A DNA stretch of 64,000 nt from a virus (taxonomy: Duplodnaviria; Heunggongvirae; Uroviricota; Caudoviricetes), in IMG/VR virus record IMGVR_UViG_3300029288_000054, positions 262,607 to 326,606 of that record, one strand, 5' to 3'. The notes under the pieces are model-generated. The model searched no databases. It was not told the DNA's origin and saw nothing but the letters and a program-made list of their open reading frames with translations. The translations under genes and the position numbers were made by a program. The stretch's first letter is position 1. Each line of letters begins with the position of its first letter. Of the stretch, positions 6,984 through 58,657 are shown in pieces.

Positions 6984-7078
6984 GCCATATTAGTCCTTCC
7001 TCACCAGTTCGGCTATGTAGATAGTCCGGACATTCTTGTCTTGTTGTATATAACTTATCCATGCCACTAGGATATAAT

Positions 7079-8677: not shown

Positions 8678-9072
8678 AAATCACAGTCAACATTGCTTTG
8701 CTCTTGGTCTTGATCACCACTGTTGTTGGGTGGGGTGTGTCAGTTGAATCGAGGCTGGCTGCTCAAGCAGAATCTTTGCAGCTTTCGAATCGAGTCAGGG
8801 CAATGGAAGAATTGATGTTGCCATTACTCATTGATTGGAAGACCCACAAAGAATTAGAGAAGTGGAAACAGAGGAATATTGATAAGATCAAGGGGCAAGT
8901 TGACAAATCGGAAAAAGAGAAGACGAAGGCAGTAAAGGCGATTGCTGCAGATGATGAAATACCAGTTCCTGTTAAGCGAAGTGTAGACGATTGGGCAAGA
9001 GGTGTATTTAAAGGACAAGCGGAATCTGGCGATAGAATAACTCCGGTAGCAGAATCAGTCGAGAAGCATTGA
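8674..9072 (+). CDS. Hypothetical membrane-anchored coiled-coil protein
   Basis: N-terminal hydrophobic helix followed by a charged helical region; ATGA overlap. Confidence 0.6.
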   Translation: MKITVNIALLLVLITTVVGWGVSVESRLAAQAESLQLSNRVRAMEELMLPLLIDWKTHKELEKWKQRNIDKIKGQVDKSEKEKTKAVKAIAADDEIPVPVKRSVDDWARGVFKGQAESGDRITPVAESVEKH

Positions 9073-9090
9073 TAGCGCAAGGAACTTAAA

Positions 9091-16363: not shown

Positions 16364-19165
16364 ATGTCAAACATCACACGCCTACCGAAAGCGCCGACAG
16401 ATGGTATGGAGGTCTGTGATGTTTATGGATCTATTTGGAGATATGACAGACAACTAAATGCCTGGATGAATATCGGGACGATTGGTGATTCGCCGGTCGT
16501 GACCGACACTCAGGACGGCTTAGTATCCCCACCTATCTTCACTCGCCTTAGTGCGATAACTTCAGAGATTCAAAGCGGATTGAAGTTTGACTTTCTGAAA
16601 ATCTATCCGCATTTATCTGGATACTATTATTTATTTCAATCATCCAATCACACGATCACGTTCGAGCCAGAATCTGCACGCGATCTGAGAATGGAAGTGA
16701 GCCGACCGAAGTTGTTGGCTTTATTATCGCAATTAAAGTGCCCAGGAGAGCGGGGCCTTACTGGCGAACAGGGTGACGTCGGGGCTCCTGGCTCTCCTGG
16801 AGAACCAGAAAAGAAATATGCAGCGTCTATATCTAGTTCGAGGATGTCGATAGATGTGGCAGTTGATGATTCTCTTGATACCCCTATATCGTTAAGGCTT
16901 TTTGCTAGCTATTCTTCTACTCCGTCTGTGGTTATCAAGGTTGTCGGGTCCGAATTTGAGGTTATATCATCGTCGATCTCTATCGACGTAGCTTCGACGT
17001 TTTTAGAATATGCCGAAGGGCGATTATCAGGGCAGATAGCGAGTCAACAATGGAGCACACTTACGTGGCATTATAAAGCTTCGCAAATGGGCAAAAAAGG
17101 TCCTACCGGCGAAGATGGTCACGGTTTCATCAGTGTTGTAACGGATGATGTTACCGATGGTAACTTGAGATCAAATGCCGCTATTGTTTTACTGCGCCGT
17201 GGTGACGGTGCTAATACTATTAACTACCTGTCGGCTGATCTTTTCAAGACAAATTGCGTATCGAAACTAGCCGTTAGTCATATATGTGCCACCACTACAA
17301 CGTCACTGACAGATTCTTATGCGGCATTGCAGACGTCAACTGATAGTTGCAAGTCGATAACCAGATATATGCTCAAGCCAGTCGTGGCTGAGATGCCGAA
17401 TCTGGTTTTCAGCGAATGGACGCCGACAAGTACGTGCCTAAGGCAGCGGCATCTTGCTGCATCAAGATTGATGTGGCCAGACTATACCAAGGTTGATTCA
17501 GGGATGTTGCCATGGCAACAAGCTAATAAGAATATGGCAGCAGGCCCTGGTTATCCTTGGTCGATAGTTGAGGAATCTGACCCAGGACAACTATGCTGCC
17601 AAGAAGATTTCTTTTTCTGCTCTAATGTCAATGATGTTACCGGTGCTTGCCCTGTGACAGTTGTTGATGGAATTCAGACACCACAAGCATCTACTTTTGG
17701 GTGCGATTGCGATTGCCCGATTTCATTTTTACTAGAAGGTGGCTATGAATTTGAAGACGTGAAAGCGACAGCGATAGGCGATATATCTTCACAAGTCGCC
17801 ATTTGCAGTTTGAATGGTGGCCTTCATGAATATAATGTAACCATAAACGTATCGACTACGACGCCAGTATTAGTAGCTGTCACTTGGAAGATAGAGTACG
17901 ACACTATTTGCGATGACGCTAGAACGATATATCAATCACAGAACAGCACAATACCAGGTTTCACTTTTGATCCGCGTGTCGCAGTTAGCCAGTCTAATTG
18001 TCCTATAGGTTGGGCAGTTACAGATAAATCAATCGCGTCGACTACGATGGAGCGGCAAGCGTGCGATAATCGCCAGGCGCTCGCCAACATAGGATTCATA
18101 ACATATTATTTTAAAGGCACTGCTGGAACTATAGTTACGAGCGCTGAAGTCAATACACTCAGACTAAGTTGTTGTCTCGGTTATAAAGTTACTGTATCCA
18201 CGAATGTCCTTGACCCAGCAACGACCTCTATTGGAGATGTCTGTGCGGCTGAAATAACGTTAAGTCAGTCACCTTCGCCGTCGCCATCAGTATCGCCATC
18301 GACTTCACTTTCACCATCGATCAGTTTATCACCTTCAACAAGTTTGTCACCTTCGACTTCATTGTCGTTATCTCCCTCAGAATCGCCATCGATTTCAGAA
18401 TCGCCTTCACCATCGCCTTCTTTCTCACCGTCGTTATCTCCGTCAATAAGTGAGTCGCCATCGCCGTCTGAGTCGCTTTCACCATCAACATCTCTGTCGT
18501 TGTCTCCACTATATTCGCAATCACCATCAGTCCTATCAATATCACCGTCGCTGCTTTCGCCATCACTTTCACTTTCGCCATCTGAATCGCTTTCACCTTC
18601 ACCATCATTGTCTACTTCGCCATTAACCTCGCAGTCGCCATCAGCGCTTTCACCGTCGATCTCAGAATCGCCGTCACCTTCACTTTCATTATCTCCATCT
18701 CCATCCCCATCGTTATCGCTGTCACCTTCGACTTCATTATCATTGTCTGTCTCGCCGTCATTGTCGTTATCTCCTTCAACATCGTTATCGAGATCATTGT
18801 CTCCATCGCCTTCGCCATCAGCACAAGTTGCATCAGCCGATTTGTCATGGATCAATATTAGAACTTGGTTCGACGGTGGTGGTGAGGGTGGCAATCCTAG
18901 CCAAACCGGCGATGGTAATTTCCAATTTTCGCCGACTACATATTACTACGGCTCTGTTAACGTTTACCACGATCTCAACAGAGTGACAATTACGCCGACC
19001 GGTCCAGGAACAATAACAGTGCAAGGTGCTGTTGTTGCGTCTGGTACGCAGTCAGGTTATATAACAACGATAGCAGGGACGCCAGTAACTATTACTGTTG
19101 TGGCTACACAAGCTGGAAGAACACCGAAAACCTATACAATTATCATAACACAACATACGTCATAA
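16364..19165 (+). CDS. Large Cys-rich putative virion/surface protein with a Ser-Pro mucin-like tract
   Basis: Short Gly-X-Y segments, CCQEDFFFCSNVNDV motif, ~185-aa S-P/S-L alternating tract, beta-rich C-terminus. Paralogue of 19173-21974. Confidence 0.75.
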   Translation: MSNITRLPKAPTDGMEVCDVYGSIWRYDRQLNAWMNIGTIGDSPVVTDTQDGLVSPPIFTRLSAITSEIQSGLKFDFLKIYPHLSGYYYLFQSSNHTITFEPESARDLRMEVSRPKLLALLSQLKCPGERGLTGEQGDVGAPGSPGEPEKKYAASISSSRMSIDVAVDDSLDTPISLRLFASYSSTPSVVIKVVGSEFEVISSSISIDVASTFLEYAEGRLSGQIASQQWSTLTWHYKASQMGKKGPTGEDGHGFISVVTDDVTDGNLRSNAAIVLLRRGDGANTINYLSADLFKTNCVSKLAVSHICATTTTSLTDSYAALQTSTDSCKSITRYMLKPVVAEMPNLVFSEWTPTSTCLRQRHLAASRLMWPDYTKVDSGMLPWQQANKNMAAGPGYPWSIVEESDPGQLCCQEDFFFCSNVNDVTGACPVTVVDGIQTPQASTFGCDCDCPISFLLEGGYEFEDVKATAIGDISSQVAICSLNGGLHEYNVTINVSTTTPVLVAVTWKIEYDTICDDARTIYQSQNSTIPGFTFDPRVAVSQSNCPIGWAVTDKSIASTTMERQACDNRQALANIGFITYYFKGTAGTIVTSAEVNTLRLSCCLGYKVTVSTNVLDPATTSIGDVCAAEITLSQSPSPSPSVSPSTSLSPSISLSPSTSLSPSTSLSLSPSESPSISESPSPSPSFSPSLSPSISESPSPSESLSPSTSLSLSPLYSQSPSVLSISPSLLSPSLSLSPSESLSPSPSLSTSPLTSQSPSALSPSISESPSPSLSLSPSPSPSLSLSPSTSLSLSVSPSLSLSPSTSLSRSLSPSPSPSAQVASADLSWINIRTWFDGGGEGGNPSQTGDGNFQFSPTTYYYGSVNVYHDLNRVTITPTGPGTITVQGAVVASGTQSGYITTIAGTPVTITVVATQAGRTPKTYTIIITQHTS
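18263..18820 (+). repeat. Coding low-complexity repeat (SPSxS)n
   Basis: Ser at nearly every second residue, e.g. SPSPSPSVSPSTSLSPS. Confidence 0.9.
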
Positions 19166-19172: not shown

Positions 19173-21974
19173 GTGTTGAATTGCCACGCGCTGAGTGATG
19201 GAACGAACCTTGCAGACGGTACTATCGTCATAGACGGTAGCGGCGATCGATGGCAATACAATAGCAAGTTGAATACCTGGTCTTGTATCGGCACATTTGC
19301 TTCGGTACCTGTGGTAACTGAAACCAGCGATGGCTTAATCTCGCCTACGATTTTCACACGCATTAATGCTATATCTGAGGCTATGCAAGACGGTCTTGAT
19401 TTTAACTTCCTTAAGATCTACCCGCATCTGACCGGCTATTATTATCTGTTTCAATCATCGAATCATACGATTTCGTTCTCACCTGAGTCAAACCACGATC
19501 TGCGAGTTGAAATTAATCGATCTAGATTGTTAGCACTTTTATCGCAGCTGAGATGCCCAGGCACAGATGGATTAACAGGAGAGCAGGGTGACAGAGGAGC
19601 CGCTGGTGACCCAGGTAAGCCAGAAGTAAAACATCCAGCAACAATAGACGGCTCAGCACTTATAGTAAACGCTACTGCAGTATCAACAATTGCAACACCG
19701 ATTTCGCTTAGGATATTTAAGAATGGTTCTAACAAGAGTTCACTAACAATCTGGCAGCCAGTGAATGGCGACCCTTTTGTTGTAGTCTATTCTGAATTTG
19801 AACTTGCAGCAGATTCGTTTCTAAATTACGACAATGTTACGTCTGTTATATCAGGGAGGCTTATATCGGATGAGTGGTCTGGCTATAGTTGGTATTACAA
19901 AGCCAACGAAATCGGTCGCAAAGGTCAACACGGCATAGATGGTGGCGGATTTATCGATGTAGTAGAGAATAGTTTAACAGACGATACTATAGAGGCCACG
20001 ACGGCGGTTATTTCGTTACGATCCAACAGCCTAAAGTCTGACATATACTTCTTTGCTGACAAGTTATTCCCGAGCAATTGTGTATCGAAGCTCGCTGTCC
20101 TGCATGCTTGTGCGACTGCAACAATAGCACCGCTAAACACTGTCGGCGATTTATCGTTAGCTGCGGTCAAGTCGACGATCGACGATTGCAAGACAATAAC
20201 GCGATTCAAATTTGCAGAGAAACAGATCGATACGCCGACGTTACAATTTGTGGAATGGACACCAATTGAGGCTTGCTGGACGCAACACCAAACAAACCAA
20301 TTCAAATGGAAGGATTTCACACCGGCATCGATAGTTGCATGGCGGCGGGCGAACTCAGATACTAACCGCGACTCTCGGTATCCGTGGGCTATTATAGAGC
20401 CACAGTTCCCAGGACAGCGATGCTGTCAGGAGGACTTCTTCTTCTGTTCAAACGTTAATGATGTTGCTGGCGGCTGCCCGGTACTAGTTGTTGAACCTAT
20501 CAAACCAGAGATCGTTGAAATATGCTGCCCATGCGATTGTCCTAGCTACTTAGACACTAGTTTAGATATCAATCTACCTTACACATATGACACAGACTCA
20601 TCAGAAGATCCAACTTGTCAAGGATTTGATTGTGTTGTTGATGGGACACTACAACATTACGAGATCAATGTTCGTATACCATGGACAGAAAGCGGTTCGA
20701 TTACTGCTAATATAACCTTTAGTTCGCAATTCAATACAATATGCGATGAAGCTAGATATATTAGTAGTGAATCGTGCCCGAATTATCCAGATGCCGCTGC
20801 ATGTCCTGTGTCGTGGTCTGCGGCATGCACCAACAATTCAGCAATAACTGGTGGCAAGAAATTTTCGACAATTGGATCACCACTTAGCTTCACATATACC
20901 GGCCCGAGCAACGTGTCTCTTGTATTCGGGATTGACGTTAACCTCGAAGGTGTTGTGTGTTGTTTAGGATATTCAATACTAGCTTGTGCAATTGGGTCTT
21001 CCACACGACCGACGACGACGCCTGCACCGACAACTACACCAGAGCCTACAATAGGACCACAACCAACTACAACAACTACGTTGCCACCGTTCCCGACGAC
21101 AACACCGCCACCGCCGACTACATTTTGGCCACCGACAACTTGGTGGCCACCGACAACACCGCCACCACCGACAACTCATCATCCGCCGACTACGCCAGGA
21201 CCAACGACCACATCTGGACCGCCACCGGTCATTTGCCCAGGTCAATGCAAGTGGTATATGTCGCCTGGAGGTGGTACTTGGTCAAGAGTGACCAATCCTT
21301 GCACTCCTGGATGCTCGTGTTCTGAACCAGATTCCTATACACCGAGAACGCCGATACCGGGCGGTGGAGCTTACGCATATACGAGATGCAAACCGACACA
21401 AACGACAACACAAGCACCACCTACTACACAGGCACCTCCGACAACTCAAGCACCGCCAACTACGCCACAGCCGACAACAACAGAAGCACCAGCTACATGC
21501 AATTATTCAATAACAGCCACATTGGCTTGGAGCAGTATTAGTGATTTGGATCTTTATGGCAAGTCGGGCGATGCTGCGACTTGCTTCTTTGGTAATAAAG
21601 GACCAACTGGTGGTCTGACATTAAACGTAGATGCTTACCCTAGTTGTGCTAGCTCTCCGAGCCCACCGGAAATAATTTCTGGCGGATTTGGTGCAAGTAA
21701 TAATTTCCGTTTTTGGTATAATAATTATACTACCAGTTGCCCCGGCGATCCATCAACAGCCGAAATAAAAGTAACAAACAATGGCCCGGCTACGATTTAT
21801 GTTAATGGTAGTGAGGTAGCACCAGGCGCAAACCATACAGAAAATATCCAACGGTGTGGTGCGTCGGGACAACAATCAGATTATGGTGGCGGCACGACAA
21901 TAGATGTGTCGTGTAATACACCACCAACAACTCCACCGCCTACGACACCGGCACCGACAACTCCGGCACCATAG
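19173..21974 (+). CDS. Large Cys-rich putative virion/surface protein with Thr-Pro mucin-like tracts
   Basis: Shares KIYPHLxGYYYLFQSSNHTI and CCQEDFFFCSNVNDV with 16364. PTT/PPTT tracts. The GTG/TTG start is uncertain by a codon. Confidence 0.75.
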   Translation: MLNCHALSDGTNLADGTIVIDGSGDRWQYNSKLNTWSCIGTFASVPVVTETSDGLISPTIFTRINAISEAMQDGLDFNFLKIYPHLTGYYYLFQSSNHTISFSPESNHDLRVEINRSRLLALLSQLRCPGTDGLTGEQGDRGAAGDPGKPEVKHPATIDGSALIVNATAVSTIATPISLRIFKNGSNKSSLTIWQPVNGDPFVVVYSEFELAADSFLNYDNVTSVISGRLISDEWSGYSWYYKANEIGRKGQHGIDGGGFIDVVENSLTDDTIEATTAVISLRSNSLKSDIYFFADKLFPSNCVSKLAVLHACATATIAPLNTVGDLSLAAVKSTIDDCKTITRFKFAEKQIDTPTLQFVEWTPIEACWTQHQTNQFKWKDFTPASIVAWRRANSDTNRDSRYPWAIIEPQFPGQRCCQEDFFFCSNVNDVAGGCPVLVVEPIKPEIVEICCPCDCPSYLDTSLDINLPYTYDTDSSEDPTCQGFDCVVDGTLQHYEINVRIPWTESGSITANITFSSQFNTICDEARYISSESCPNYPDAAACPVSWSAACTNNSAITGGKKFSTIGSPLSFTYTGPSNVSLVFGIDVNLEGVVCCLGYSILACAIGSSTRPTTTPAPTTTPEPTIGPQPTTTTTLPPFPTTTPPPPTTFWPPTTWWPPTTPPPPTTHHPPTTPGPTTTSGPPPVICPGQCKWYMSPGGGTWSRVTNPCTPGCSCSEPDSYTPRTPIPGGGAYAYTRCKPTQTTTQAPPTTQAPPTTQAPPTTPQPTTTEAPATCNYSITATLAWSSISDLDLYGKSGDAATCFFGNKGPTGGLTLNVDAYPSCASSPSPPEIISGGFGASNNFRFWYNNYTTSCPGDPSTAEIKVTNNGPATIYVNGSEVAPGANHTENIQRCGASGQQSDYGGGTTIDVSCNTPPTTPPPTTPAPTTPAP
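20999..21971 (+). repeat. Three coding Thr-Pro tracts (about 20999-21228, 21397-21495, 21919-21971)
   Basis: PTTTPAPTTTPEPT, PPTTQAPPTTQAPPTT and PPTTPPPTTPAPTTPAP. Confidence 0.85.
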
Positions 21975-21996: not shown

Positions 21997-23844
21997 ATGG
22001 CCAAGAAACTAACGATCGGGATGGCTCATTATAATGATTTTGATGGGATTTATTTCTCTATCCAAGCATTATGTCTATATCACGATTTAAGTGAAGTCGA
22101 TCTCGTTGTAATCGATAATTCTCCAAATACGCCAGATGGCAAATCAGTCGCATCTTTCTTAGCAGAGACGCCAGCACGTTATATTCCCTATGAAGATGTG
22201 GTTGGCGCTGCGAATGCAAAAGGTCGTGTTTTCGACGAAGCACAGACCGAATTCGTTCTTTGTATGGATTGCCATGTGATGTTGGCTCCCGGCGCAATTA
22301 AGCGTCTAGTCGAATGGTATGAACATAATCCAGATAACAACGATTTATTAACAGGCCCTCTTGTCTATAATAATTTACACGACATTTCAACGCATTTTGA
22401 TTTGACATGGCGTGGATCTATGTGGGGTATCTGGAGTCGCGCATGGGCTTGTAAGTGCGGAAGATATTTTTCAATACCGATAGCAGCCGAAGACACTGTA
22501 GTGCATGATTTGATGGATTTTGGTAAAGTCTGCCCAGAATGTCCTGATTGTGGGCTGCAATATCCTAAGATTTCATATTTTGGGCATGAAGCTGCATTTC
22601 AAAACATTGGCTGTAAGCAAATCGGATCTGATGACCATGGCCAGCCTTTTGAGATTCCAGCTAATGGTATGGGGCTTTTCACTTGCCGTAAAAGCGCTTG
22701 GCTTGGATTCAATCCGACATTCCGTGGATTTGGTGGCGAAGAAGGTTATATTCATATAAAGTATCGTCAAGCTGATAGAAAATGCTTGAATTTGCCGTTT
22801 CTTAGATGGATACACAGATTTCTGCGTCCAAACGGTACATCATATCCACTGAGTTACTGGGATAGAATCAGAAACTACGTAATTGGTCATCAAGAGCTGC
22901 AATTGTCTCTGGATGGAATAAAGAATCATTTTGTTGGTGTCGATAAACCGATAGACGAAAAATCTTGGAATTATCTACTTGAAGATCCTATTGGCCATAT
23001 TTTCGCGCCGTGTTCAGGGTGTCAACGTATCGGCAATACAATTGAAGAAGCGTTTGCTTGGACTGAATCGCATCCGCATAACATGGGTAAGTATATGCCC
23101 AGGTTTCGCGATTTAGCCTCGAAATGCAGCCATATAACGGCGTTTGTTAAGCAGAAAGAGTTTGATATTACTTTATTGGCTGGTCATCCGAAGGTGCTAC
23201 GGGTTTATACATCAGACCCGTCACCAGTTCATCAGCAATTGTCAGAGATGGCCGGTGATACTAGCTACGCGAACTACGCCATCGATTGGATGATGCTTAG
23301 CGACATCGACGAAACTGATTTGCTGGTGATTCATTCCATCCATCAAGCCGATAGGCTGTATGCTGAGTTATCCAGATTTGGCGGGCGAGTACGTCGTTGG
23401 ATCTTATTGCGGTCAACTGGTGCATATGGAGAAGTAGGTGAGCCTTCTGGTCCAGGTTTATTTGTAGCGATGCGTAAGTGGATGCGTGAAAATCCAGAAT
23501 GGTCAGTTATTGAACACCAGAACGAAGATTACGGCTATACTCTTCTTAGCAGAGATCCGGCAGATAAGAAGAAACTACCAGCGTTGCCGAAGATGGTGTG
23601 GAATTATACAAAAGCATTAATAAAACACAAAAAGTCGGGCGCTAGGACAGCAAGAGTCGAGACAATCGAAGCTAGGCTTAACAAATGTATGCTGTGTTTG
23701 CAACGTACAGCTAATCGTTGTGCTATTTGCGGGTGTTTCTTAGATGAAGGTCCCGGCGAAAGAGACGGGAAAGTGCTGTGGCCTGAATCGTTCTGTAATT
23801 TGGGTGAATGGGACGTAGAAAAATCGCTGTTTAAGATGAAATAA
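21997..23844 (+). CDS. GT-A (GT2/GT27-like) glycosyltransferase with a Zn-ribbon insert, a degenerate methyltransferase-like domain and a Cys-rich tail
   Basis: VVIDNS, DCH (DxH) and GFGGEEGYIH motifs. Internal CKCG/CPECPDCG. TDLLVIHSIH resembles xDLLFIDTxH. C-terminal CxxC...CxxCGC. Confidence 0.75.
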   Translation: MAKKLTIGMAHYNDFDGIYFSIQALCLYHDLSEVDLVVIDNSPNTPDGKSVASFLAETPARYIPYEDVVGAANAKGRVFDEAQTEFVLCMDCHVMLAPGAIKRLVEWYEHNPDNNDLLTGPLVYNNLHDISTHFDLTWRGSMWGIWSRAWACKCGRYFSIPIAAEDTVVHDLMDFGKVCPECPDCGLQYPKISYFGHEAAFQNIGCKQIGSDDHGQPFEIPANGMGLFTCRKSAWLGFNPTFRGFGGEEGYIHIKYRQADRKCLNLPFLRWIHRFLRPNGTSYPLSYWDRIRNYVIGHQELQLSLDGIKNHFVGVDKPIDEKSWNYLLEDPIGHIFAPCSGCQRIGNTIEEAFAWTESHPHNMGKYMPRFRDLASKCSHITAFVKQKEFDITLLAGHPKVLRVYTSDPSPVHQQLSEMAGDTSYANYAIDWMMLSDIDETDLLVIHSIHQADRLYAELSRFGGRVRRWILLRSTGAYGEVGEPSGPGLFVAMRKWMRENPEWSVIEHQNEDYGYTLLSRDPADKKKLPALPKMVWNYTKALIKHKKSGARTARVETIEARLNKCMLCLQRTANRCAICGCFLDEGPGERDGKVLWPESFCNLGEWDVEKSLFKMK

Positions 23845-24485
23845 TGATCAAATCGTTACATGATATCCATAAAGGTGAGACGATAGCTATCGTCGGTTCT
23901 GGTCCAACGGCAACTCGCTTTCTTGGTCAAGAGCCAGTATCAATAGGAGTCAATGGTGCTGCCAAACTTGGTAAGCGTTTCAGATACTTCATGTGTGGTG
24001 ATGCTAGGTCGTCACATTTTGATTGGTTCAACATCGACTGTTCTGCGGTTAGAGTTATAGCAAAGTTAACGGCTGCGCCAGACAGAATTTTATATCCACT
24101 CGAATTATTCCCAGACATTAAACGCGCTGCTGTCGCCACAGCTAAGCAGAGCACAATAAAGCTTCCACTACCAGTAGAACCGCATCGCACATTCATGTAT
24201 AAGTGGTATAGGCCCGAGAGGCTTAAGGCAGATATGAACTATCTTATGTTCGGAGGCACTATAAGTTGCTGTGCAGTACAGCTTGCTTATCTCATGGGTG
24301 CAACTAAGATCGTATTATATGGGTGTGGATTCAACAGCATCGGCAAGCATTATTTCTATCAGACGCCGAGACCCGGTAGCATTTCTGACAGCCAGCGTAC
24401 GGTGATGAATACCATAATCGGCGAAATAAGGAAACGTGGCGTTCAGTTTCAAATCGTCGGCGAAACAACACTCAATACGTTCTAA
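23844..24485 (+). CDS. Maf/MptE-like (DUF115-type) glycosyltransferase-like protein
   Basis: IAIVGSGPT, IGVN and AVQLAYLMGATKIVLYGCGF motifs. Confidence 0.7.
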   Translation: MIKSLHDIHKGETIAIVGSGPTATRFLGQEPVSIGVNGAAKLGKRFRYFMCGDARSSHFDWFNIDCSAVRVIAKLTAAPDRILYPLELFPDIKRAAVATAKQSTIKLPLPVEPHRTFMYKWYRPERLKADMNYLMFGGTISCCAVQLAYLMGATKIVLYGCGFNSIGKHYFYQTPRPGSISDSQRTVMNTIIGEIRKRGVQFQIVGETTLNTF

Positions 24486-24494: not shown

Positions 24495-26003
24495 ATGCCA
24501 ACAGCAACAATCATAATGTCGGTGTTGAATGAAGAATACACCGAAAAGACGATCGATACGATCATAGCGAACACTATGCCAGGGTTGATCGATGAATTCA
24601 TTGTTGTTGATGACTGTAGCAAGGTGCCTGTTGTGATAGATAGGCCGAATGTAAGAGTCATACGAAATCAGTTAAGAGAAGGCTTGCAACGATCACGCAA
24701 CACTGCTGCCGCCGCTGCTAAGTCGCCAGTCATAGTATCAATAGACGCCCATGTTAAGGTCGCACCAAACTGGCTGTTACCTATCGTCAATCGATTGACA
24801 GAACGATATAACTGCGTCGGTGTTCCTCTAACTAGAGGTCTTGATGCTCCAACTTGGATGGAGACTACTGCCGCATACGCCAAGACTGGTTGGCGTTGGA
24901 ATCTTGATTTCAACTGGATACATGATGACGGAACTGATAATACCCCGTGTCTAGCCGGTCACTGTTTCGCATTCACAAAGCAATGGTGGGAGGAGATCGG
25001 CGGATTTGATACTGGCATGTATAAGTGGGGATGTGAGAATATTGAATTCTCACTGCGCACATGGATGGCTGGCGGATCTGTCGAAATAATCCGTGATTCT
25101 GTGGTGGCACATTGGTTCAAGAACAAATTCAACTATGATCTCGATACAACGACGCTCGAACAAAATAAGGCACGTATAGCGGAAGTGTGGTTTGACGACT
25201 ATAAGAAGTTTTTCTATCAGGCTATTCGCAAGAAGCCGGGCGATATCAAGTTTGGCGACATCTCAGAACGCATGGCTATACGAGATCGTATTCAAAAGCG
25301 ACCATTTCAGTGGTTCTTGGACAACTTCTTGGCTGATTTATCTAAAATCGAGATGTTGAAGAACAGGCACGCCAATACCCGTATCGCTGTGCTTGGCGCA
25401 GGTCCATCGCTCGATCTTGTTACTAAGGGGATATTAGACGACTTCGATGTCGTTATAGGCGTAAATTGGAACGCTTTAGTATTCGACTGTGATTATGTCG
25501 TCTTCCATGATCTGAAACCAGCCGAGTCGGTGATGGACGCTAAGCGTTACCTACCGAATCAGCTCTTCATACCGAAAAAATTGAAAACTGGTGCTGGTAA
25601 GACGTCAGTAGAACCACCAGAGAAGTTTTTCGATTGCATTACTTATGATCTCGGTCCTCAAGATAGCGACTCTTGCTTGAATAACAAGGATCAACCATTC
25701 TTCCATCACGCCTCAACAGTTCATACCGCTATCCATATCGCTGCATTTCTCGGCGCGAAGTCGATTACTTTATTCGGCTGTGACGCGCGACTTGCTCCAG
25801 ACGGGCGTAGCCATACTACACTCGTCCCACAATATAATAAGGGGAAATACTGGCCCGACAACAAAGATACTGAAAATTACATTGCTCGTATCAACAGAGG
25901 ATATGACATGCTGCTCCCAGCTTTGAAAAAGTGGAATATTTCTCTATTGAGATACGAATATATGATGAGCAGCCAGCCAACTACGGTCCCTAAGAGTAGC
26001 TAA
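24495..26003 (+). CDS. Polypeptide GalNAc-transferase-like (GT27-like) domain fused to a Maf/MptE-like domain
   Basis: NE, IVVDD, RNQLREGLQRSR, D84-A-H86, WNLDFNW, W178-GCENIEFSLRTWMAGGSVEII, VAHWFK and NKARIAEVWFDDYK. C-terminal VLGAGPSL, IGVN and AAFLGAKSITLFGCD. Confidence 0.8.
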   Translation: MPTATIIMSVLNEEYTEKTIDTIIANTMPGLIDEFIVVDDCSKVPVVIDRPNVRVIRNQLREGLQRSRNTAAAAAKSPVIVSIDAHVKVAPNWLLPIVNRLTERYNCVGVPLTRGLDAPTWMETTAAYAKTGWRWNLDFNWIHDDGTDNTPCLAGHCFAFTKQWWEEIGGFDTGMYKWGCENIEFSLRTWMAGGSVEIIRDSVVAHWFKNKFNYDLDTTTLEQNKARIAEVWFDDYKKFFYQAIRKKPGDIKFGDISERMAIRDRIQKRPFQWFLDNFLADLSKIEMLKNRHANTRIAVLGAGPSLDLVTKGILDDFDVVIGVNWNALVFDCDYVVFHDLKPAESVMDAKRYLPNQLFIPKKLKTGAGKTSVEPPEKFFDCITYDLGPQDSDSCLNNKDQPFFHHASTVHTAIHIAAFLGAKSITLFGCDARLAPDGRSHTTLVPQYNKGKYWPDNKDTENYIARINRGYDMLLPALKKWNISLLRYEYMMSSQPTTVPKSS

Positions 26004-26004: not shown

Positions 26005-26331
26005 ATGGACATAGTGGCGCTCTTGATTGCGATTGTGGCTCTAATTGTAGCATCAGTCGCACTAACATTGGTACTGATCGTTTTCCGAGAATTTGTTAGG
26101 GACACATTTGTTAATCGCAAGTTGGAAAGACCGCTTCAGAAAGATGCCACCGGAACGGACTCCGGGGAGCAGGGCTCAACAGCAAGAGCTGCTAATGCCC
26201 CCGAGCAGTCCGTTTCCTCTCCAGTTCTCCATGCACCAAATCTTGCCCCCCAGGCCCTTGCGCCATCAATCGGACGGCCACCAATCCCAAAAGGTGGATT
26301 TGGAACAAGAGTCACAAAACGTGACAAGTAG
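26005..26331 (+). CDS. Hypothetical membrane-anchored protein
   Basis: N-terminal ~27-aa hydrophobic helix, Pro-rich tail. Confidence 0.65.
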   Translation: MDIVALLIAIVALIVASVALTLVLIVFREFVRDTFVNRKLERPLQKDATGTDSGEQGSTARAANAPEQSVSSPVLHAPNLAPQALAPSIGRPPIPKGGFGTRVTKRDK

Positions 26332-26404
26332 TGGTGATGAGGAATTGGAAGAATCGATTTTAGTATTTGGATTGGGTGACGACTGCGAAATCAGGAGAGC
26401 CATA

Positions 26405-27475
26405 ATGAATGCAATCGGTATCGATATTGGAACGAAGAATATTGTTGTCTCGTTCCGACACAATAAGAAATTGGTATTCCTTAGGGAGATCAACGGCTAT
26501 TACTTGATCCCGCGTCCGAGTAAGTTTGTTGAGAACATGCTTGACGATCCAAACAAATTGCGGTCCGATGGGACTCGGCGACCAGCGAAATGGATTCGTC
26601 TGGACGGTAAGGATGGTATCTATATCTTAGGCAAGGATGCAGAAGAGTTGGCATATGCCCACAATGATACGCTATTGCGTCCGATGGCCGAAGGTGGTGT
26701 TGCACCGGACGAGGCCGCTCTGATGGTTCTTTCCAGTATCGTGCAAGGTCTGCTGTCGATGTGTGAGCACGATGCTGGCGAATTCGAGCCAGAGATCAAA
26801 CTATGTTATTGCACTACCGCAAAGGCACTCAACCGCACAATTAACATCGATTATCACCAGCAAGTGATCAATCTGATACTTTCGGGATACGAGACGAAAT
26901 CAGCAATCAAATCGACATCTATCAAAGAGTCGCACGCTCTTGTCCTCAAAGAGACACCAGACGCAACAGGGATCGGCATATCTTGGGGTGCTGGAACCGT
27001 GACCGTCAGTTATGTTCTTTGGGGTAACGAGATTTATTCGTTTAGCTGGGTTGGTGCTGGCGACTGGATCGATTCAGAAGTCGCCAAGCGTCATGGATAT
27101 GATCCCGAATCGCCGCGCAAGAAATCGTCTGAGACTCCGACGACAATTTGCCGGATGAAAGAAAAGATCGATCTTACGCAGACTTACACATCTCGCCTTG
27201 AGCTTGATATCATCTTACACTATCGCATCTTGATCCAGAACGTTATTCGTGGTATTGTGCAAGGCTTTGTCGATCACGAGACTAGTGCACGTATCGATAA
27301 GCCCATTGATGTGTTTATGGCTGGCGGGACATCGTGCCCGGCTGGCTTCGAAGAGATGGTAGCACAGTTATTCGAAGAAGAGAAGCCGCCGTTCGCAGTC
27401 AACAAAGTGAAAAGATGTAAAGATCCTTTGTTTGCTGTGGCAGAGGGTTGTTTAATTGCCGCAGAAACATCTTGA
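26405..27475 (+). CDS. Actin-like ATPase (MreB/ParM/ASKHA fold)
   Basis: Phosphate-1 IGIDIGTKN, phosphate-2 GISWGAGT, adenosine MAGGTS, connect-2 DPLFAVAEG. ATG at 26405. Confidence 0.8.
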   Translation: MNAIGIDIGTKNIVVSFRHNKKLVFLREINGYYLIPRPSKFVENMLDDPNKLRSDGTRRPAKWIRLDGKDGIYILGKDAEELAYAHNDTLLRPMAEGGVAPDEAALMVLSSIVQGLLSMCEHDAGEFEPEIKLCYCTTAKALNRTINIDYHQQVINLILSGYETKSAIKSTSIKESHALVLKETPDATGIGISWGAGTVTVSYVLWGNEIYSFSWVGAGDWIDSEVAKRHGYDPESPRKKSSETPTTICRMKEKIDLTQTYTSRLELDIILHYRILIQNVIRGIVQGFVDHETSARIDKPIDVFMAGGTSCPAGFEEMVAQLFEEEKPPFAVNKVKRCKDPLFAVAEGCLIAAETS

Positions 27476-27484: not shown

Positions 27485-28888
27485 ATGTCGGTTGAAGTTG
27501 AACCATCTCAATATACCGGTCCAAAGGAATTCGTGCATCTGCACCTGCATACTTTGGCGTCTTCTCTAGATGGCGTTCCCTCTGCAGAGCAATATGCCGA
27601 CGCCTGCTTAAAGTCCGGATTCCCGGCAATGGCTGCTACAGAGCACGGCCATATGGCATCGTTCCCGGACATTTACTTCGCTTTCAAGAAAAGAAAACTG
27701 AAAGCGATTGCGGGATGTGAGATCTATTACAACGACTACGAGGAGACACGTAGAAGATTCGACAAGGCTGGTAAGAAGCCAAAATCGCTACCAAAGTCTA
27801 TACAAAATCGCATCATGCGTAATCGCCATTTGACTGTCTTGGCGAAGAACGCTACCGGTATCTCTAACTTGATCAGACTAACAACGCTTGCGTGGGAATA
27901 TTCTTATATCGGCAAGCCACGTATCTGGTTCGAAAGGTTGTGTGAGCATAAAGAAGGGCTAATCGTTTTATCTGGCTGCGTCAATGGCCCCTTGTCGCAT
28001 GAATTGCGTCTAGATATCGAAAACAATATCGAAAGTGGAAAGCCTTATCCTCGTAGTAAGATCGACAGAACAGCAGTTGAATATCTAAAACAATTCAAAG
28101 AAGCATTTGGAGAGGATTTCTTTATAGAGGTCCAAATGCCATGTCTTCCTGAATTGCACGACGTTCAGGTCTTTCACAGCTTGATCGAATATGCTGATAC
28201 ATATGGTGTAAAGCCGGTTATTACCAACGACGCTCATTATTTGACACGTGAGGACGCCTACCTACAGAAGATTATGATGGCGGTCGATCAGAAAACCGAC
28301 ATCCATGATACCAATATGTTCGCATCGCAGGGCGATGAGCAATTTTTCAAGTCACGAGCGGAGCTTTGGACGACATTCAAGAATGGTGGTTATTCGGAAG
28401 GAATAGACGACGCTAAGTTCGAAGAGATATGCGATAACACGTTATTGGTAGCTGATCGATGTGAAAAACTTGCACCAGACACATCACCAAAGATTCCAGA
28501 TTGGTCAAGCGTAGAGGCTGGTGTCAATGCAAACGATGCTCTACGTGAGATCGTTGATAGAGAATTGAAGAGGAGAGGCTGGGACAAAGACACAAAAAAG
28601 TGGCCCTGCGATGGTCGCATGGTTACGTACGCAGAACAAGCAGAAATAGAGCTGAGTCGATTTATCGATAAAGGCTTCTCAAGTTATTTCTTGATAACTA
28701 GAGATTGGATTCAATGGGGCAGGAAAAGAGGATGGCCTTTTGGACCTCGTGGCAGTGCTGCTGGATCACTTGTATGTTATTTGCTCGGCATCCATAACAT
28801 CAACTCATTAGCATGGGAATTATCATTCGATCGATTTTTAGCTAGCTCACGCGGTGGTTATCTATTGAAGGTTAAGGTGGATGGCTAA
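27485..28888 (+). CDS. dnaE: DNA polymerase III alpha, N-terminal chain (PHP domain plus palm start)
   Basis: HLHLHT, ATEHG, GCEIY, RHLTVLAKN, SGC, TNDAHY, YFLI, RGSAAGSLVCYLLGI and FDRFL. Confidence 0.9.
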   Translation: MSVEVEPSQYTGPKEFVHLHLHTLASSLDGVPSAEQYADACLKSGFPAMAATEHGHMASFPDIYFAFKKRKLKAIAGCEIYYNDYEETRRRFDKAGKKPKSLPKSIQNRIMRNRHLTVLAKNATGISNLIRLTTLAWEYSYIGKPRIWFERLCEHKEGLIVLSGCVNGPLSHELRLDIENNIESGKPYPRSKIDRTAVEYLKQFKEAFGEDFFIEVQMPCLPELHDVQVFHSLIEYADTYGVKPVITNDAHYLTREDAYLQKIMMAVDQKTDIHDTNMFASQGDEQFFKSRAELWTTFKNGGYSEGIDDAKFEEICDNTLLVADRCEKLAPDTSPKIPDWSSVEAGVNANDALREIVDRELKRRGWDKDTKKWPCDGRMVTYAEQAEIELSRFIDKGFSSYFLITRDWIQWGRKRGWPFGPRGSAAGSLVCYLLGIHNINSLAWELSFDRFLASSRGGYLLKVKVDG

Positions 28889-30103: not shown

Positions 30104-32908
30104 ATGGCAAAGTGTGATTTTGAGATACTTGCAAAAGTTGCCCATAAACGTATTGTGCAGCTTGGTCTATCAGAAATCTATATCAAGCGACTTGAATTTG
30201 AGCTAGACCAAGTGCGTATGCAGGGAGCCCAAAGATACTATGAAGACTTGATAGAAGCGAACCACAAATTTGATAAGAATCCAAATCAGCTTTTGTTACC
30301 TTGGCTGCTGGGACGTTTTACTGGTGATGCAAACGTCGACCCAATTGCAAATAGAGATGGCCCGCTAGTTCTCAGTGCAAAATACGATGACATTCAAGCT
30401 ATCATTAAAGAGACTGGCAAACTCCCTGTTGATATACGGCAGGATGACGACAAACCAGATATTGATATTGATTGCTTGCCAGAAGCTAGAAATCAAATTA
30501 AAGATTATGTGGCTGGTCGATATGGTAAGAATAACGTCGCCAGCGTTGGTACATGGCAAGCATATCTCTTCAAACAGGCTCTTGCAGATGCCTATACAGC
30601 ACTTGGTCTCGACAAGTTAGAGGGCGGTGGTCTAATTGGGTCACGCAATAGAGCAATTGAATTGACTAAGAACCTTCCTGATGACGTCAACGAAATGCGT
30701 GAAGGCGGATATGGCTCATGCAAGGGTAGAGTGAAACAAGATGGCGTAGACAAAGAGTGCGGTTGCAAGCATAAGGGTTTGGTGTGTCCGCAATGTGGTA
30801 GTGGTGATACCGACTCGCCGACTATTGCTATGATTTTGCGTGATTACCCAGATATTGAAAAGTTTATATCTGAGAACAGAGAACAACACCAAAGGGTAGT
30901 CGACACAGCTATTCGTTTGGTTGGTCGTATCAAGCACGCTGGCAAACACGCCGGTGGTCTGATTATTTCAGACCGCGATCTATTCGGCAATGTGCCGATG
31001 CAGCTCGATACGAAAACTGGCCAATGGGTTAGTATCTGGACAGAGGGGCGCAACACACAGCTATCAAAATTTGGCTATTTGAAGTGGGATATGCTTGGCT
31101 TGAAGAACTTAGCATATATCAAGACATGCTGCGAGATGATTAAGGAGAATCATGGCATCTCGTTCGGCGATCAACTCCAAGGACTTGATGAATCCGACCC
31201 GATTGACGACGTTGCTGGTTATTATTGGAAAGACGGTGAGAAGACGAGAATACCACTCAATGATCCGGCAGCACTGAAGCTAGCAAACGATTCACTGACC
31301 GATAGCATTTTCCAGTTTGATACCGAACTCGCGAAGCGGACATTATCCGCTGGTGTGCGTAGCTTCCACGACTTGTTGATTTTCAATGCTATGGGGCACC
31401 CTGGCCCTATGCAGAGCATCCCAGATTACGTTGAGAATCGCGATGATAAGTCTAATAGCTGGGCTAAAGGCGAACATCCAGATATTGTTGAAATATTGAA
31501 AAAGACGAGCGGCGTCATCGTCTTCCAAGAACAACTAACGTCCATATGGCAGCGTGTTGCGGGTTTCACTGGTCCAGAATCACAAGACGCTAGAAAAGCG
31601 GTTGCGAAAAAGTGGAAAGATAAGCTGAAGCCGGTCAGAGAACATTGGCTGGTCGGTGCTAGTAAGAAAATCGGTGAATCGAAGGCTCGCGACTATTGGG
31701 ATAAGATGGAGACGTTCGGGCGGTACGCTTTTAACTTGTCCCATGCTATCTGTTATTGTTTATGGGCATATCGCTGTCTGTGGTTTAAGGCTCACTTTCC
31801 AGAAGAGTGGTGGGCTAGTGTGATGGGAACGTGCGACCAGAAGGCTCTTGAGCGTTATATGTCTGCTGCGCGTGGTGAAGGGATTCACTTTGGCGAAATC
31901 GACATCGCAAAATTGACGCCACGGCCGGTCGCTCACTCTGGACCGAATACAGATAGGAAGCATATAGCACTCGGGCTGACAAGCTTAAAGAAAATTGGCG
32001 AGAAGGCTGCTGTCGAGTTTGTTGATGCAGTCGGCAACAACACATATACAGATATTGATGACTTCATCGAGAAGAAAGGTAAAAATAAAATCCTCTTTGA
32101 GCGTCTTATCAAACTTGGAGCATTCACATGCTTGCATCCGAACAAGCGTGCTACATGGATGTGGTATTTGCACGCTTATGGCTCTGGTAATATCGAGGAA
32201 TTTGAATTCACCGAAGTCGATGATATAGCTAGGGCTGAAATGGCCGCATCAAGGGCTGTCCAACTTAAGGCAAAGCCGAAGTTGAAACAATTCAGCTATC
32301 CGATGAAGATTCTCAAAGCTTACCATTTACGGAGGTTAATGGAAGACGCGAGATGGACAGAAGAGACAATTCTAGCGGAGCGAGAACGCCAAATCGCAGA
32401 ATTCAAACGGCAATTTCCCAAGCGGAAAGTACCGGTGAAAATGCAAAACTGGCGTCCCGTTATTAAGGCTACGCGAGCAGATATCATGGCCTTATACCCG
32501 GAAGACTATGCGTTTGAGCGGATTCTTACGTTCGAAAAAGAATTCCTTGGCTATCATTGGCATTCGCCAATCGACTTATATCACGTCAGCGGAAATAATA
32601 CAGTCGAGAAATCAAAACACAACGAACGGCTTGAGGGTGTCATAGTAGAAATTATCAGAACCAAAACCAAGAAGGGTTCTGATATGATCCGTATGACAGT
32701 TTCAGACGGTCGCAAGACGTGTTTGATATTAATTTGGGAGCATGACATTAAGAATCAGGATAAGTCATTACTACGTCCTGATAAAGGTATCAGAATAAAA
32801 GTCGATTATGATAAAGATCGTAACAGCTTCGTATTAAAGAGAGGCACTGTGATGGAGCCACTCTGGACCAAAGATGCGTGGGAAAAGCAACAAGCCTACG
32901 CTGAATAA
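30104..32908 (+). CDS. dnaE: DNA polymerase III alpha, C-terminal catalytic chain
   Basis: PDIDID, GKHAGGLIIS, LKWDMLGL, FQF, IVFQEQ, YAFNLSHA, HhH GLTSLKKIG, EKEFLGY and an OB fold at the C-terminus. Confidence 0.9.
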   Translation: MAKCDFEILAKVAHKRIVQLGLSEIYIKRLEFELDQVRMQGAQRYYEDLIEANHKFDKNPNQLLLPWLLGRFTGDANVDPIANRDGPLVLSAKYDDIQAIIKETGKLPVDIRQDDDKPDIDIDCLPEARNQIKDYVAGRYGKNNVASVGTWQAYLFKQALADAYTALGLDKLEGGGLIGSRNRAIELTKNLPDDVNEMREGGYGSCKGRVKQDGVDKECGCKHKGLVCPQCGSGDTDSPTIAMILRDYPDIEKFISENREQHQRVVDTAIRLVGRIKHAGKHAGGLIISDRDLFGNVPMQLDTKTGQWVSIWTEGRNTQLSKFGYLKWDMLGLKNLAYIKTCCEMIKENHGISFGDQLQGLDESDPIDDVAGYYWKDGEKTRIPLNDPAALKLANDSLTDSIFQFDTELAKRTLSAGVRSFHDLLIFNAMGHPGPMQSIPDYVENRDDKSNSWAKGEHPDIVEILKKTSGVIVFQEQLTSIWQRVAGFTGPESQDARKAVAKKWKDKLKPVREHWLVGASKKIGESKARDYWDKMETFGRYAFNLSHAICYCLWAYRCLWFKAHFPEEWWASVMGTCDQKALERYMSAARGEGIHFGEIDIAKLTPRPVAHSGPNTDRKHIALGLTSLKKIGEKAAVEFVDAVGNNTYTDIDDFIEKKGKNKILFERLIKLGAFTCLHPNKRATWMWYLHAYGSGNIEEFEFTEVDDIARAEMAASRAVQLKAKPKLKQFSYPMKILKAYHLRRLMEDARWTEETILAERERQIAEFKRQFPKRKVPVKMQNWRPVIKATRADIMALYPEDYAFERILTFEKEFLGYHWHSPIDLYHVSGNNTVEKSKHNERLEGVIVEIIRTKTKKGSDMIRMTVSDGRKTCLILIWEHDIKNQDKSLLRPDKGIRIKVDYDKDRNSFVLKRGTVMEPLWTKDAWEKQQAYAE

Positions 32909-35453: not shown

Positions 35454-35463
35454 TCGGTGCTAT

Positions 35464-36804: not shown

Positions 36805-36891
36805 TCAGCAAATATCTCCTATTTCAGACTTCTGAAAAAATCAAAAATATCATGTCTAGTCTGTTCATACAGACAACCACGGAGGCGTGAA

Positions 36892-38886: not shown

Positions 38887-38971
38887 TAGATAATTGGGCG
38901 TTTCGTGTAGCCAAACATAATAGGGATGGCGGCAATCTGTCTAGCTATCTGATCAGGATGACTGGCATATT

Positions 38972-40600: not shown

Positions 40601-40612
40601 TGAAGGGTTGAT

Positions 40613-58142: not shown

Positions 58143-58657
58143 CGTGCGGTCTCCCGGCGAGTGGGAAGTCAAAGACTATAGATATCTTAGCCAAGCATAA
58201 GAGCTATAAATGGCACATTATAAGGCCGTCTGATTGGGTCCCGGAGAACTTGGCTACCCTCGACGAGCAAACTCAACGAGAATACAATATTGGCTGTTGG
58301 TCATTGGCTTTGGAAAAATGTAAAGAAGCCATTGAACAAATATCACCGAAAGAGATCATAGTACTAGACGCGTGTAACTCGAAGATCACCACAATTTTGA
58401 CACTGATAACTGATGCGAAAGCGGCATTACACAGAGTTGTCTTATTATTTGTTCAGGCTAATGCTGATCTATGTTTAGCAAGGAATGCGAAGCTGAATGA
58501 ACCGTTGCTTCGCGATTATGTCGATAGATTTAAAACATCTCTACCAAGATATAAGAAGTGTTGTGATACTGTTTTTGTGGCCCGCAATAATGGTACTTTC
58601 GAACAACTTGAAACTGAATTATATGACATTTGGAAAACATTGTGCCAGAGTATCTAA
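58130..58657 (+). CDS. P-loop kinase (AAA_33 / polynucleotide-kinase-like)
   Basis: GLPASGKS, VLDACN and CLARN. Confidence 0.75.
   Translation: MLIITCGLPASGKSKTIDILAKHKSYKWHIIRPSDWVPENLATLDEQTQREYNIGCWSLALEKCKEAIEQISPKEIIVLDACNSKITTILTLITDAKAALHRVVLLFVQANADLCLARNAKLNEPLLRDYVDRFKTSLPRYKKCCDTVFVARNNGTFEQLETELYDIWKTLCQSI

Follow-up and report, generated by a model that had tools for sequence, protein, structure and literature searches.

The 64,000-nucleotide stretch of viral DNA analysed here (the window, positions 262,607 to 326,606 of IMG/VR virus record IMGVR_UViG_3300029288_000054) carries on its plus strand, at 24495-26003, a gene for a 502-amino acid protein, P0001, in which a glycosyltransferase domain of the GT27 (polypeptide N-acetylgalactosaminyltransferase, ppGalNAc-T) type is fused to a C-terminal domain with a fold like that of the Maf flagellin glycosyltransferases. 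GT27 is the gateway family that starts mucin-type O-glycosylation, and it is treated as eukaryotic. Judged from its sequence, P0001 is best explained as a soluble and catalytically competent glycosyltransferase with two domains, encoded by a huge contractile-tailed phage, and we lean towards the view that it carries out cytoplasmic O-glycosylation of the phage's own Ser/Thr-rich proteins. The architecture, a soluble protein that joins a GT27 domain to a Maf-like domain and lacks a lectin, is new, and no description of a phage GT27 was found in the searchable literature.

The translation of the gene is free of stops and divides into two parts. The catalytic part, a GT-A domain comprising residues 1-285 (24495..25349, plus strand), was assigned from phmmer and Foldseek matches and from invariant residues; the Maf/MptE-like part, with a sialyltransferase-like fold, comprises residues 286-502 and the stop codon (25350..26003, plus strand). 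An earlier note on this DNA had placed a GT27-like enzyme at 24495-25330, which fits the GT27 part, and the gene continues to 26003. All 16 of the 16 PDB sequences matched by P0001 in phmmer are GT27 enzymes: the best is human GalNAc-T2 (E 1.3e-46, residues 2-282), and T9, T1, T12, T4, T10, T7 and Toxoplasma GalNAc-T3 match at E-values of 1e-44 to 1e-30. The Pfam matches are GT2 (PF00535) and Glyco_transf_7C, as in GT27 enzymes, together with a weak MptE-like match near the C-terminus. An AlphaFold2 model with 18 homologues as input (predicted local distance difference test score, pLDDT, 91.3; predicted template modelling score, pTM, 0.88) was compared with GalNAc-T2 crystal structures, as the earlier note had proposed, and the two agree to a root-mean-square deviation (rmsd) of 1.9-2.0 Å over ~303 columns at 33% identity (Foldseek against PDB, E 1e-26), with a template modelling (TM) score of ~0.54 when normalised to the whole 502-residue query. 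The sequence motifs that had been read from the translation all lie at the residues assigned to them, namely N12-E13, VVDD37-40, R57-N-Q-L-R-E-G-L-Q-R-S-R68, D84-A-H86, W135-N-L-D-F-N-W141, W178-G-C-E-N-I-E...E-I-I199, V204-A-H-W-F208 and N224...Y241, an agreement far beyond chance.

The relation to the animal ppGalNAc-Ts (CAZy GT27; human GalNAc-T2, PDB 2FFU, 4D0Z and 6E7I), whose catalytic domain is 33% identical and superposes at ~2 Å, extends to the Mn site formed by the DxH motif and a C-terminal His, the WGxEN motif, the aromatic groove and the helical subdomain, the last being the C-terminal ppGalNAc-T element (N..R..E.W) that P0001 and GalNAc-T2 have in common. P0001 was mapped onto GalNAc-T2 (T2) numbering through the phmmer alignment, and 43 proteins of the main phage clade were tabulated. 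The metal site, D84-A/P-H86 (T2 D224/H226) with H206 (H359), is present in 43/43, and W178, G179, E181 and N182 of the Gal/GalNAc-T motif (T2 W331, E334 and N335 for the W, E and N) are invariant in the same 43; E184 is kept in 41. Also invariant in 43/43 are F139, W141, F208 and Y214, the counterparts of T2 F280, W282, F361 and Y367, which line the acceptor-peptide groove in the T2-EA2 structures. With these catalytic and groove residues invariant throughout, selection maintains the phage GT27 as a transferase that depends on metal and has a groove of the peptide type. The catalytic flexible loop of P0001 is 3 residues shorter than that of GalNAc-T2 in the phmmer alignment.

Animal ppGalNAc-Ts possess a type II anchor, a stem and a ricin lectin, whereas P0001 is phage-encoded and predicted to be cytoplasmic, and has a Maf-like domain instead. 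P0001 starts directly at strand beta-1 (residues 4-10); it has no signal peptide, membrane anchor, or type II anchor and stem, and no member of the phage clade has an N-terminal extension. No match to the ricin-type (CBM13) lectin model PF00652 was found in P0001, and the phage-clade proteins listed have 0 QxW lectin repeats, with a single QxW in one. The transmembrane anchor and ricin lectin that the earlier note had reported as lacking are thus indeed missing, and the Maf-like domain occupies the place of the ricin lectin in the eukaryotic enzymes. Some eukaryotic GT27s also lack a lectin.

Placement in GT27 rests on searches of sequence collections and on phylogeny. Residues 1-290 of P0001, compared exhaustively by HMMER with 1.84 billion representatives, gave 493 matches at E<=1e-30; outside the phages, the closest of these are eukaryotic GT27s (35-43% identity, E-values of 1e-76 to 1e-38) from Chromera, Porospora, Alphamonas, Effrenium, Vitrella and, among animals, fish (GALNT14), insects and annelids. 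Bacterial GT2s match at E 1e-13 or worse with <=28% identity, and no NCBIfam bacterial model reaches its cut-off on P0001; the far better E-values of the eukaryotic GT27s mark the domain as genuinely GT27-type and not an ordinary bacterial GT2. The top non-phage scores belong to alveolate GT27s (Toxoplasma GalNAc-T3, PDB 6S22 and 8UHV; Chromera, Vitrella, Porospora and dinoflagellates), which at 38-43% identity have the same catalytic motifs but differ in forming their own clade (support 89/74) without phage proteins, in having N-terminal extensions and, in many cases, in having QxW lectin repeats. Two trees, a quick one of 205 domains and a careful LG+C20 one of 77 domains, agree that the phage proteins form one clade inside GT27 (100/96), separate from the alveolate-type (89/74) and animal-type (95/100) clades, and that a long branch (length 1.66, 100/98) splits the phage, alveolate and animal clades from the bacterial GT2 outgroups, with which the phage proteins do not cluster. 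Since the phage clade lies outside both the animal and the alveolate clades, it is deep and was not captured recently from any of the eukaryotes sampled. How the three clades branch relative to one another is poorly supported (63/23), and approximately unbiased (AU) tests reject neither a tree with all eukaryotes together and phage outside (p 0.64) nor one that joins phage with alveolates (p 0.60). The direction of transfer between phages and eukaryotes cannot be read from these sequence data, and the trees do not settle the evolutionary origin of GT27, on which the earlier note had seen a bearing.

When 185,579 prokaryote species genomes were scanned with sequence patterns, just two generic GT2s (22% identity) came up. 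These patterns had been taken from the phage clade and would not pick up 'ENLE'-type sequences, so the scan shows the absence of phage-clade-like genes and not of every GT27-like gene. A tblastn search of 50,697 GenBank phage records with P0001 gave no match, either because cultured phages lack the gene or because near-identical records were masked. BFVD holds no viral protein >18% identical to P0001, and a feature search of the ESM Atlas returned generic GT2 clusters only. The IMG automatic annotation names some of the phage homologues 'polypeptide N-acetylgalactosaminyltransferase'.

GT60, the family of polypeptide alpha-N-acetylglucosaminyltransferases, comprises lectin-less, DxH-type relatives of GT27 that start mucin-type O-glycans with N-acetylglucosamine (GlcNAc) (PMC8724618; PMC7185993). 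These enzymes (Dictyostelium, Trypanosoma cruzi and Skp1 Gnt1; PF11397) offer a working analogy for a lectin-less and possibly non-GalNAc enzyme, but P0001 differs from them in grouping with GT27 by sequence, and the GT60 profile PF11397 has no match in P0001 at E<=0.01 and none across the whole phage genome even at E<=10. As a separate observation, four BFVD proteins of uncultured Caudovirales (A0A6J5NK11, A0A6J5R1Z4, A0A6J5MV95 and A0A6J5PB76) are annotated 'Glycosyltransferase, GlcNAc', a GT60-type InterPro name, and GT60, as the sister family of GT27, may also occur in phages.

The phage origin assumed in the earlier note is supported by the rest of the genome. The window belongs to a 388,105-bp IMG/VR virus record rated 99% complete by CheckV, with the standard bacterial code, 93% coding density and ~500 open reading frames (ORFs). 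Among its genes are those for a phage tail sheath (PF04984, above cut-off), for a phrog_2488 helicase that is closest, among cultured phages, to those of two jumbo phages, Tunturiibacter phage Tunturi_5 and Bacillus phage G, and for DnaB, RecA, a gp32-like protein and a split DnaE. The tail sheath and the phage-type replication genes indicate a contractile-tailed huge phage and not a eukaryotic virus or contamination. The GT27 gene is syntenic on >12 independent phage contigs from several studies; the sequencing runs that contain it are landfill and groundwater metagenomes, likewise from several studies, and no RNA runs are among those listed.

The C-terminal domain, residues 286-502 (217 aa), reaches a pLDDT of 90.7 when folded alone. 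Together with a 213-residue neighbour it has the fold of Maf flagellin glycosyltransferases (PF01973; Magnetospirillum Maf, 5MU5) and of the GT29/GT42 sialyltransferases: in VIA-align the Maf structure 5MU5 gives Z 12.2 (rmsd 3.7 Å, 171 residues aligned), the MptE HPPK 8SD5 11.8, SteA 9.4, the GT29/GT42 sialyltransferases 8.2-9.2 (ST3Gal, Cst-I, ST6GALNAC2 and ST8SiaIII at 8.6-9.2) and TPK 7-8, against ~4 for unrelated folds. A fused Maf-like domain, as proposed from the sequence, is therefore borne out at the level of the fold, and a G-x-G-P-S loop at its N-terminus is a further likeness to Maf and the sialyltransferases. By sequence, PF01973 scores 27.8 bits on P0001 (gathering cut-off 34.6) and covers the C-terminal motif alone; weak PF01973 matches occur in 17/18 members of the domain family (best E 1.5e-7), and the Maf-family model PseD matches weakly in 12/18. 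A profile of the family found nothing significant among PDB sequences, and Foldseek with the domain returned weak rows at E 8e-3 or worse. P0001 differs from Maf in matching only the central residues 263-505 of 632, the flanking Maf domains (flagellin recognition) being absent, and from Maf systems in that these obtain a CMP-nonulosonate donor from an associated NeuB/Pse/Leg pathway, whereas the phage genome has no NeuB. Transfer of a cytidine monophosphate (CMP)-activated acid sugar may be proposed for the domain from its modelled fold, with a pyrophosphokinase activity like that of MptE as the alternative. The 213-residue neighbour is a stand-alone Maf/MptE-like paralogue encoded directly upstream (23844..24485, plus strand; weak PF01973 match), and hhalign relates its family to that of the C-terminal domain at a probability of 97.5% (E 4.9e-12). 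Among 12 loci with upstream flank, drawn from outside the catalytically impaired lineage described below, homologues at 43-94% identity were found in 10 (L002-L009, L021 and L022) and not in L027 or L010. A third MptE-like protein is encoded elsewhere in the phage genome.

The case for acceptors encoded by the phage itself comes from two large proteins upstream of the enzyme, both of 933 aa. Scaffold protein A, P0061 (16364..19165, plus strand), was recognised from its translation, a scan for Pro/Thr/Ser-rich (PTS) tracts and a PF12733 match; a Cys-rich N-terminal region of ~610 aa with a short collagen-like segment is followed by an (L)SPS tract of SLSPSTSLSPS-type at aa 629-820 (~190 aa, nt ~18248-18823) and then by a cadherin-like beta-sandwich. 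Scaffold protein B, P0062 (19173..21974, plus strand), recognised from its translation, the PTS scan and paralogy, has mucin-repeat-like Thr/Pro tracts of TTTPAPTTTPEPT-type at aa 606-691 and 740-773 (nt ~20988-21245 and 21390-21491) and a TPP-rich C-terminal tail. The two are paralogous (40% identity over ~600 aa), each with the conserved Cys-rich region and its collagen-like segment ahead of the tracts and with unrelated C-terminal domains behind them, and neither has a signal peptide or transmembrane segment. Three further (L)SPS-tract orphan proteins of 1183, 2085 and 1007 aa are encoded elsewhere in the record (genome positions 82389-85940, 87502-93759 and 342015-345038; loci L023 and L024); two of them are 45% identical paralogues, Pfam and PHROG give no family for any of the three, and the third (342015-345038) lies 7 kb from the tail sheath gene. 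In the tracts of these proteins, 81% of 354 Ser/Thr residues have a Pro at -1, +1 or +3, against 15% proteome-wide. Downstream of the enzyme are four collagen-like fibre genes (33030-35453, 36892-38886, 38972-40600 and 40613-42163, plus strand; PHROG tail-fibre and collagen-like matches), with a non-collagen ORF (35464-36804, plus strand) between them. Thr dominates the Y position of their Gly-X-Y triplets, for example in 107/188 triplets of 33030-35453; the genome has nine collagen-like proteins with Thr commonest at Y, including 154/361 triplets at genome 116788-121140. The two PTS-rich proteins and the Gly-X-Thr collagens (33030-42163) are thus as first described.

The linkage of enzyme and scaffold is conserved. 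A scaffold homologue precedes the GT27 gene in every related locus with enough flank, down to ~30% GT27 identity (L028 and L029), and the order of scaffold homologue(s), optional GT2, small Maf-like gene and GT27(-Maf) recurs in seven close relatives (L002-L008) and in three loci that are only 38-55% identical (L021, L022 and L027, the Maf-like gene being absent from L027). The link to PTS-rich proteins noticed in the window accordingly holds in relatives as low as ~38% identical: an S/T-rich (SPS or PTT) tract directly follows the conserved scaffold region in 9/10 loci with an intact enzyme. A divergent lineage of homologues (467-483 aa; P0049-P0053 and P0205; L028 10001-11413 and L029 6001-7419) has lost the DxH and the C-terminal His, and its GT27 domain is, from these substitutions, likely dead, with core Maf-like motifs persisting. 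Both visible scaffolds of this lineage have poly-Pro linkers with almost no Ser/Thr. Co-variation of a dead GT27 with a poly-Pro linker is what the acceptor hypothesis predicts, in a small sample of two loci.

The mechanism that we favour can be outlined as follows. The GT27 domain, as a retaining, Mn2+-dependent enzyme of DxH type, would transfer a uridine diphosphate (UDP)-activated sugar of the N-acetylhexosamine (HexNAc) type to Pro-flanked Ser/Thr tracts, with P0061 and P0062 as first candidate acceptors and the three (L)SPS-tract proteins and Gly-Ala-Thr collagen-like fibres as others. As P0001, P0061 and P0062 all lack a signal peptide and a transmembrane segment, the reaction would be cytoplasmic, occurring in the infected cell alongside the UDP- and CMP-sugars. 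The fused Maf-like domain, the 213-residue paralogue and a ~615-residue GT2-family glycosyltransferase (21997..23844, plus strand; PF00535 E 1e-9), a candidate chain extender, would then extend the glycan or add sugars, one of which may be a CMP-activated ulosonic acid such as 3-deoxy-D-manno-octulosonic acid (Kdo). The likely start of the GT2 is Met32 of a 646-residue ORF that opens at 21904, the equivalent Met being the start in the L002, L003, L006, L007 and L009 homologues. Phage-encoded GalE, KdsB and Gmd/Fcl would supplement the host's nucleotide-sugar pools, and fibre-like virion proteins would thereby gain an extended linker that is coated with glycan and resistant to proteases. The glycan sleeve could stiffen the linkers, block proteases and hold the variable C-terminal domains off the particle. 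The earlier note's further suggestion of receptor mimicry or mucus adhesion is weakened, since the runs containing the gene are from landfill and groundwater and not animal mucosa.

The sugar-supply genes lie outside the window: KdsB (CMP-Kdo synthetase) at genome 101873-102616 (L011; 259 bits against a cut-off of 193), a GalE-type 4-epimerase at 205859-206872 (L018; 418 bits) and Gmd with Fcl of the GDP-fucose pathway at 377229-379180 (L016). The gatekeeper Y299 of E. coli GalE aligns to Leu in the phage GalE, a substitution that is compatible, as far as the alignment goes, with epimerisation of UDP-GlcNAc/GalNAc. The KdsB-type enzyme is the sole cytidylyltransferase (CMP-sugar enzyme) in the phage genome, from which NeuB (PF03102) and KdsA are absent; capping by a nonulosonate, as implied by the earlier note, therefore loses ground. 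One relative has a KdsB-type gene at a distance of 5 kb from that for GT27. Phage-supplied CMP-Kdo was considered as a required part of the mechanism and dropped, because a relative that is 100% complete has no KdsB. In a 149-kb phage contig (L010, 8931-10840) a stand-alone GT27-type protein of 282 aa, 50% identical, overlaps the end of a preceding UDP-galactopyranose mutase gene (PF03275, E 1e-75), which hints at galactofuranose in the glycan of that lineage. Accessory sugars vary between phage lineages, and we infer from the gene content a glycosylation pathway that may be self-contained.

Several observations weigh against glycosylation of the phage's own Ser/Thr-rich proteins as outlined here. 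To our knowledge, all known GT27 activity is eukaryotic and Golgi-lumenal. The residues of the N-acetyl pocket, T2 I253, G309 and L310, are replaced by T113, H156 and C157 in 42-43 of the 43 phage proteins, whereas eukaryote-type sequences keep I in 129/153, G in 141/153 and L in 121/153; I253 and L310 are mutated in GalNAc-T2 'bump-hole' structures that are among the Foldseek matches, and the titles of these PDB entries indicate a gatekeeper role. This difference at three positions means that the donor sugar may not be GalNAc, the donor of the earlier proposal, which is weakened accordingly; to judge by the pocket residues the donor may be some HexNAc that is not GalNAc, or one that differs in its N-acyl group, and GalNAc is a default guess for it, not a result. 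Except for the cadherin-like domain, the scaffolds match no Pfam or PHROG structural family, so their location in the virion is assumed. In one locus (L027) an intact GT27 stands beside a scaffold without an S/T-rich tract, and the GT27 gene sits in a replication-gene neighbourhood. As to the second domain, the Maf-like fold is common to pyrophosphokinases (MptE Z 11.8, TPK Z 7-8), and the two domains separate or decay independently in some lineages, which argues against a strictly coupled two-step reaction. KdsB occurs in only 1/5 related IMG/VR records and is absent from the 100%-complete relative, which has the enzyme; NeuB and KdsA are absent as well, and the donor of the Maf-like domain could be supplied by the host. 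A bolder version, in which the phage has a complete cytoplasmic mucin-type system, the fused domain caps the glycan with a CMP-activated ulosonic acid (Kdo) in a 'sialyl-Tn-like' structure and the phage clade is sister to all eukaryotic GT27, is in our estimate fairly unlikely; if true, it would mean that the GT27 family predates early eukaryotes or was exchanged with them through viruses.

Other acceptors have to be weighed against the Ser/Thr tracts of the scaffolds. The same chemistry could have the Thr-rich collagen-like fibres (Gly-Ala-Thr), and not the SPS/PTT tracts, as its physiological acceptors: the nine collagen-like proteins have Thr commonest at Y, four of them are encoded 7-16 kb downstream of the GT27 gene, and the other collagen block has KdsB 3 kb upstream of it. 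Bacillus anthracis BclA, with GalNAc-linked glycans on its collagen-like region, offers a resemblance. The conserved immediate neighbour of the enzyme, however, is the scaffold and not the collagen genes, and the neighbouring Pro residues that one expects the conserved aromatic groove to read are missing from Gly-Ala-Thr, so that we give this alternative a minor share of the probability. A target in the host envelope is also conceivable, P0001 modifying a glycopolymer (lipopolysaccharide (LPS), capsule or a teichoic-acid-like polymer) for superinfection exclusion or receptor masking, like many phage GT2s. Phage glycosyltransferases commonly change host surface glycans (reviewed in PMC12619734), wall teichoic acid is the supposed target of bacterial enzymes auto-labelled 'polypeptide GalNAc-transferase' (PMC11032452), and KdsB, Gmd/Fcl and GalE are typical of LPS and O-antigen sugar genes. 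Such a role is made unlikely by the invariant peptide-groove residues of the GT27 domain, by its 33-43% identity to true polypeptide transferases as against <=28% to bacterial GT2s and by the lack of a membrane segment in P0001, and both the scaffold-linker synteny and the co-variation point elsewhere.

The position of the gene among those for a helicase, split DnaE, RecA, DnaB and a gp32-like protein would suit a very different function, the glycosylation of hypermodified phage DNA bases to evade restriction, and viruses are known to have glycosyltransferases for the decoration of DNA (Pyle et al. 2024, cited in PMC12619734). We regard this as very improbable, given that no pyrimidine hydroxymethylase of the thymidylate-synthase type was found in the genome, that the fold and groove are of the peptide-acceptor type and that the conserved partner is a large S/T-tract protein. 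Hardly credible is the remaining alternative, that the gene comes from eukaryotic contamination or a eukaryotic virus, or encodes an ordinary bacterial GT2 that resembles GT27. GT27 is otherwise known from eukaryotes, and giant eukaryotic viruses also have collagen-like genes and many glycosyltransferases; the genome, however, is 388 kb long, 99% complete and 93% coding in bacterial code, with a tail sheath and a jumbo-phage-like helicase, the best viral proteins in BFVD are <=18% identical to P0001, and the synteny on >12 independent phage contigs and the outgroup branch (1.66, 100/98) are hard to reconcile with contamination and with an ordinary GT2, respectively. Phage genes, synteny and outgroup branch in effect refute contamination and an ordinary GT2.

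With regard to known phage systems, the closest parallel to O-glycosylation of the phage's own proteins is in mycobacteriophages, in which, according to the account in PMC12619734 (citing Freeman et al. 2023, Cell Host Microbe), phage glycosyltransferases decorate structural proteins in the cytoplasm and the glycans shield the virion. The acceptors of the mycobacteriophage system are the C-terminal tails of capsid and tail-tube proteins, whereas the candidates here are long mucin-like tracts. The phage GT27 genes suggest that phages sugar-coat their own fibre-like proteins, and they point to a new class of glycosylated phage protein, with long mucin-like linkers, beyond the short C-terminal glycans of mycobacteriophages. 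We know of no GT27 reported in the mycobacteriophage glycosylation system. The deep, monophyletic and catalytically intact phage clade changes the known distribution of the family, in which apicomplexan GT27 has been attributed to transfer from animals (PMC8724618). A natural GT27 that is soluble and free of lectin and anchor makes an appealing subject for structural studies and an appealing tool for bacterial glyco-engineering, and the altered donor pocket (T113, H156 and C157) and the dead-enzyme/poly-Pro lineage are handles on specificity and function.

The window contains additional glycosyltransferase genes. A GT2 with an HtrL_YibB-like domain (7061-8677, plus strand; Pfam) is separated by a small ORF (8674-9072, plus strand) from a GT4 fused to a class I methyltransferase (9091-10833, plus strand; Pfam, and phrog_3408 at E 3.5e-168). 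The glycosyltransferases of 7061-10833 are part of the phage's glycosylation toolkit and candidates for a role in the GT27 pathway. The glycosyltransferase part of 9091-10833 is 68% identical to a Synechococcus phage S-CAM7 glycosyltransferase, unexpectedly close for a huge phage of landfill and groundwater. Another GT7/GT27-like module is found in a 609-residue protein (58630-60459, plus strand) with two GT2 domains, the second with Glyco_transf_7C (E 7e-14).

Downstream of the enzyme, an actin-like protein (26093-27475, plus strand; Pfam Volactin PF25216, E 9.6e-42) precedes the split DnaE, the alpha subunit of DNA polymerase III, which is encoded by two genes (27485-28888 and 30104-32908, plus strand) with three small ORFs between them. 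A Volactin-like gene lies directly downstream of the GT27 gene and before the split DnaE in most relatives examined (L002-L009, L022 and L028-L031), and this conserved phage actin homologue of a huge-phage lineage may merit its own study. The DnaE gap or gene of relatives holds an intein (L009 10457-12355), a LAGLIDADG endonuclease (L029) or extra genes, and near DnaE in one relative (L009 12388-14277) is a gene for a 629-residue protein with a Mom-family domain of the DNA-modification type (PF25680, E 1.3e-11).

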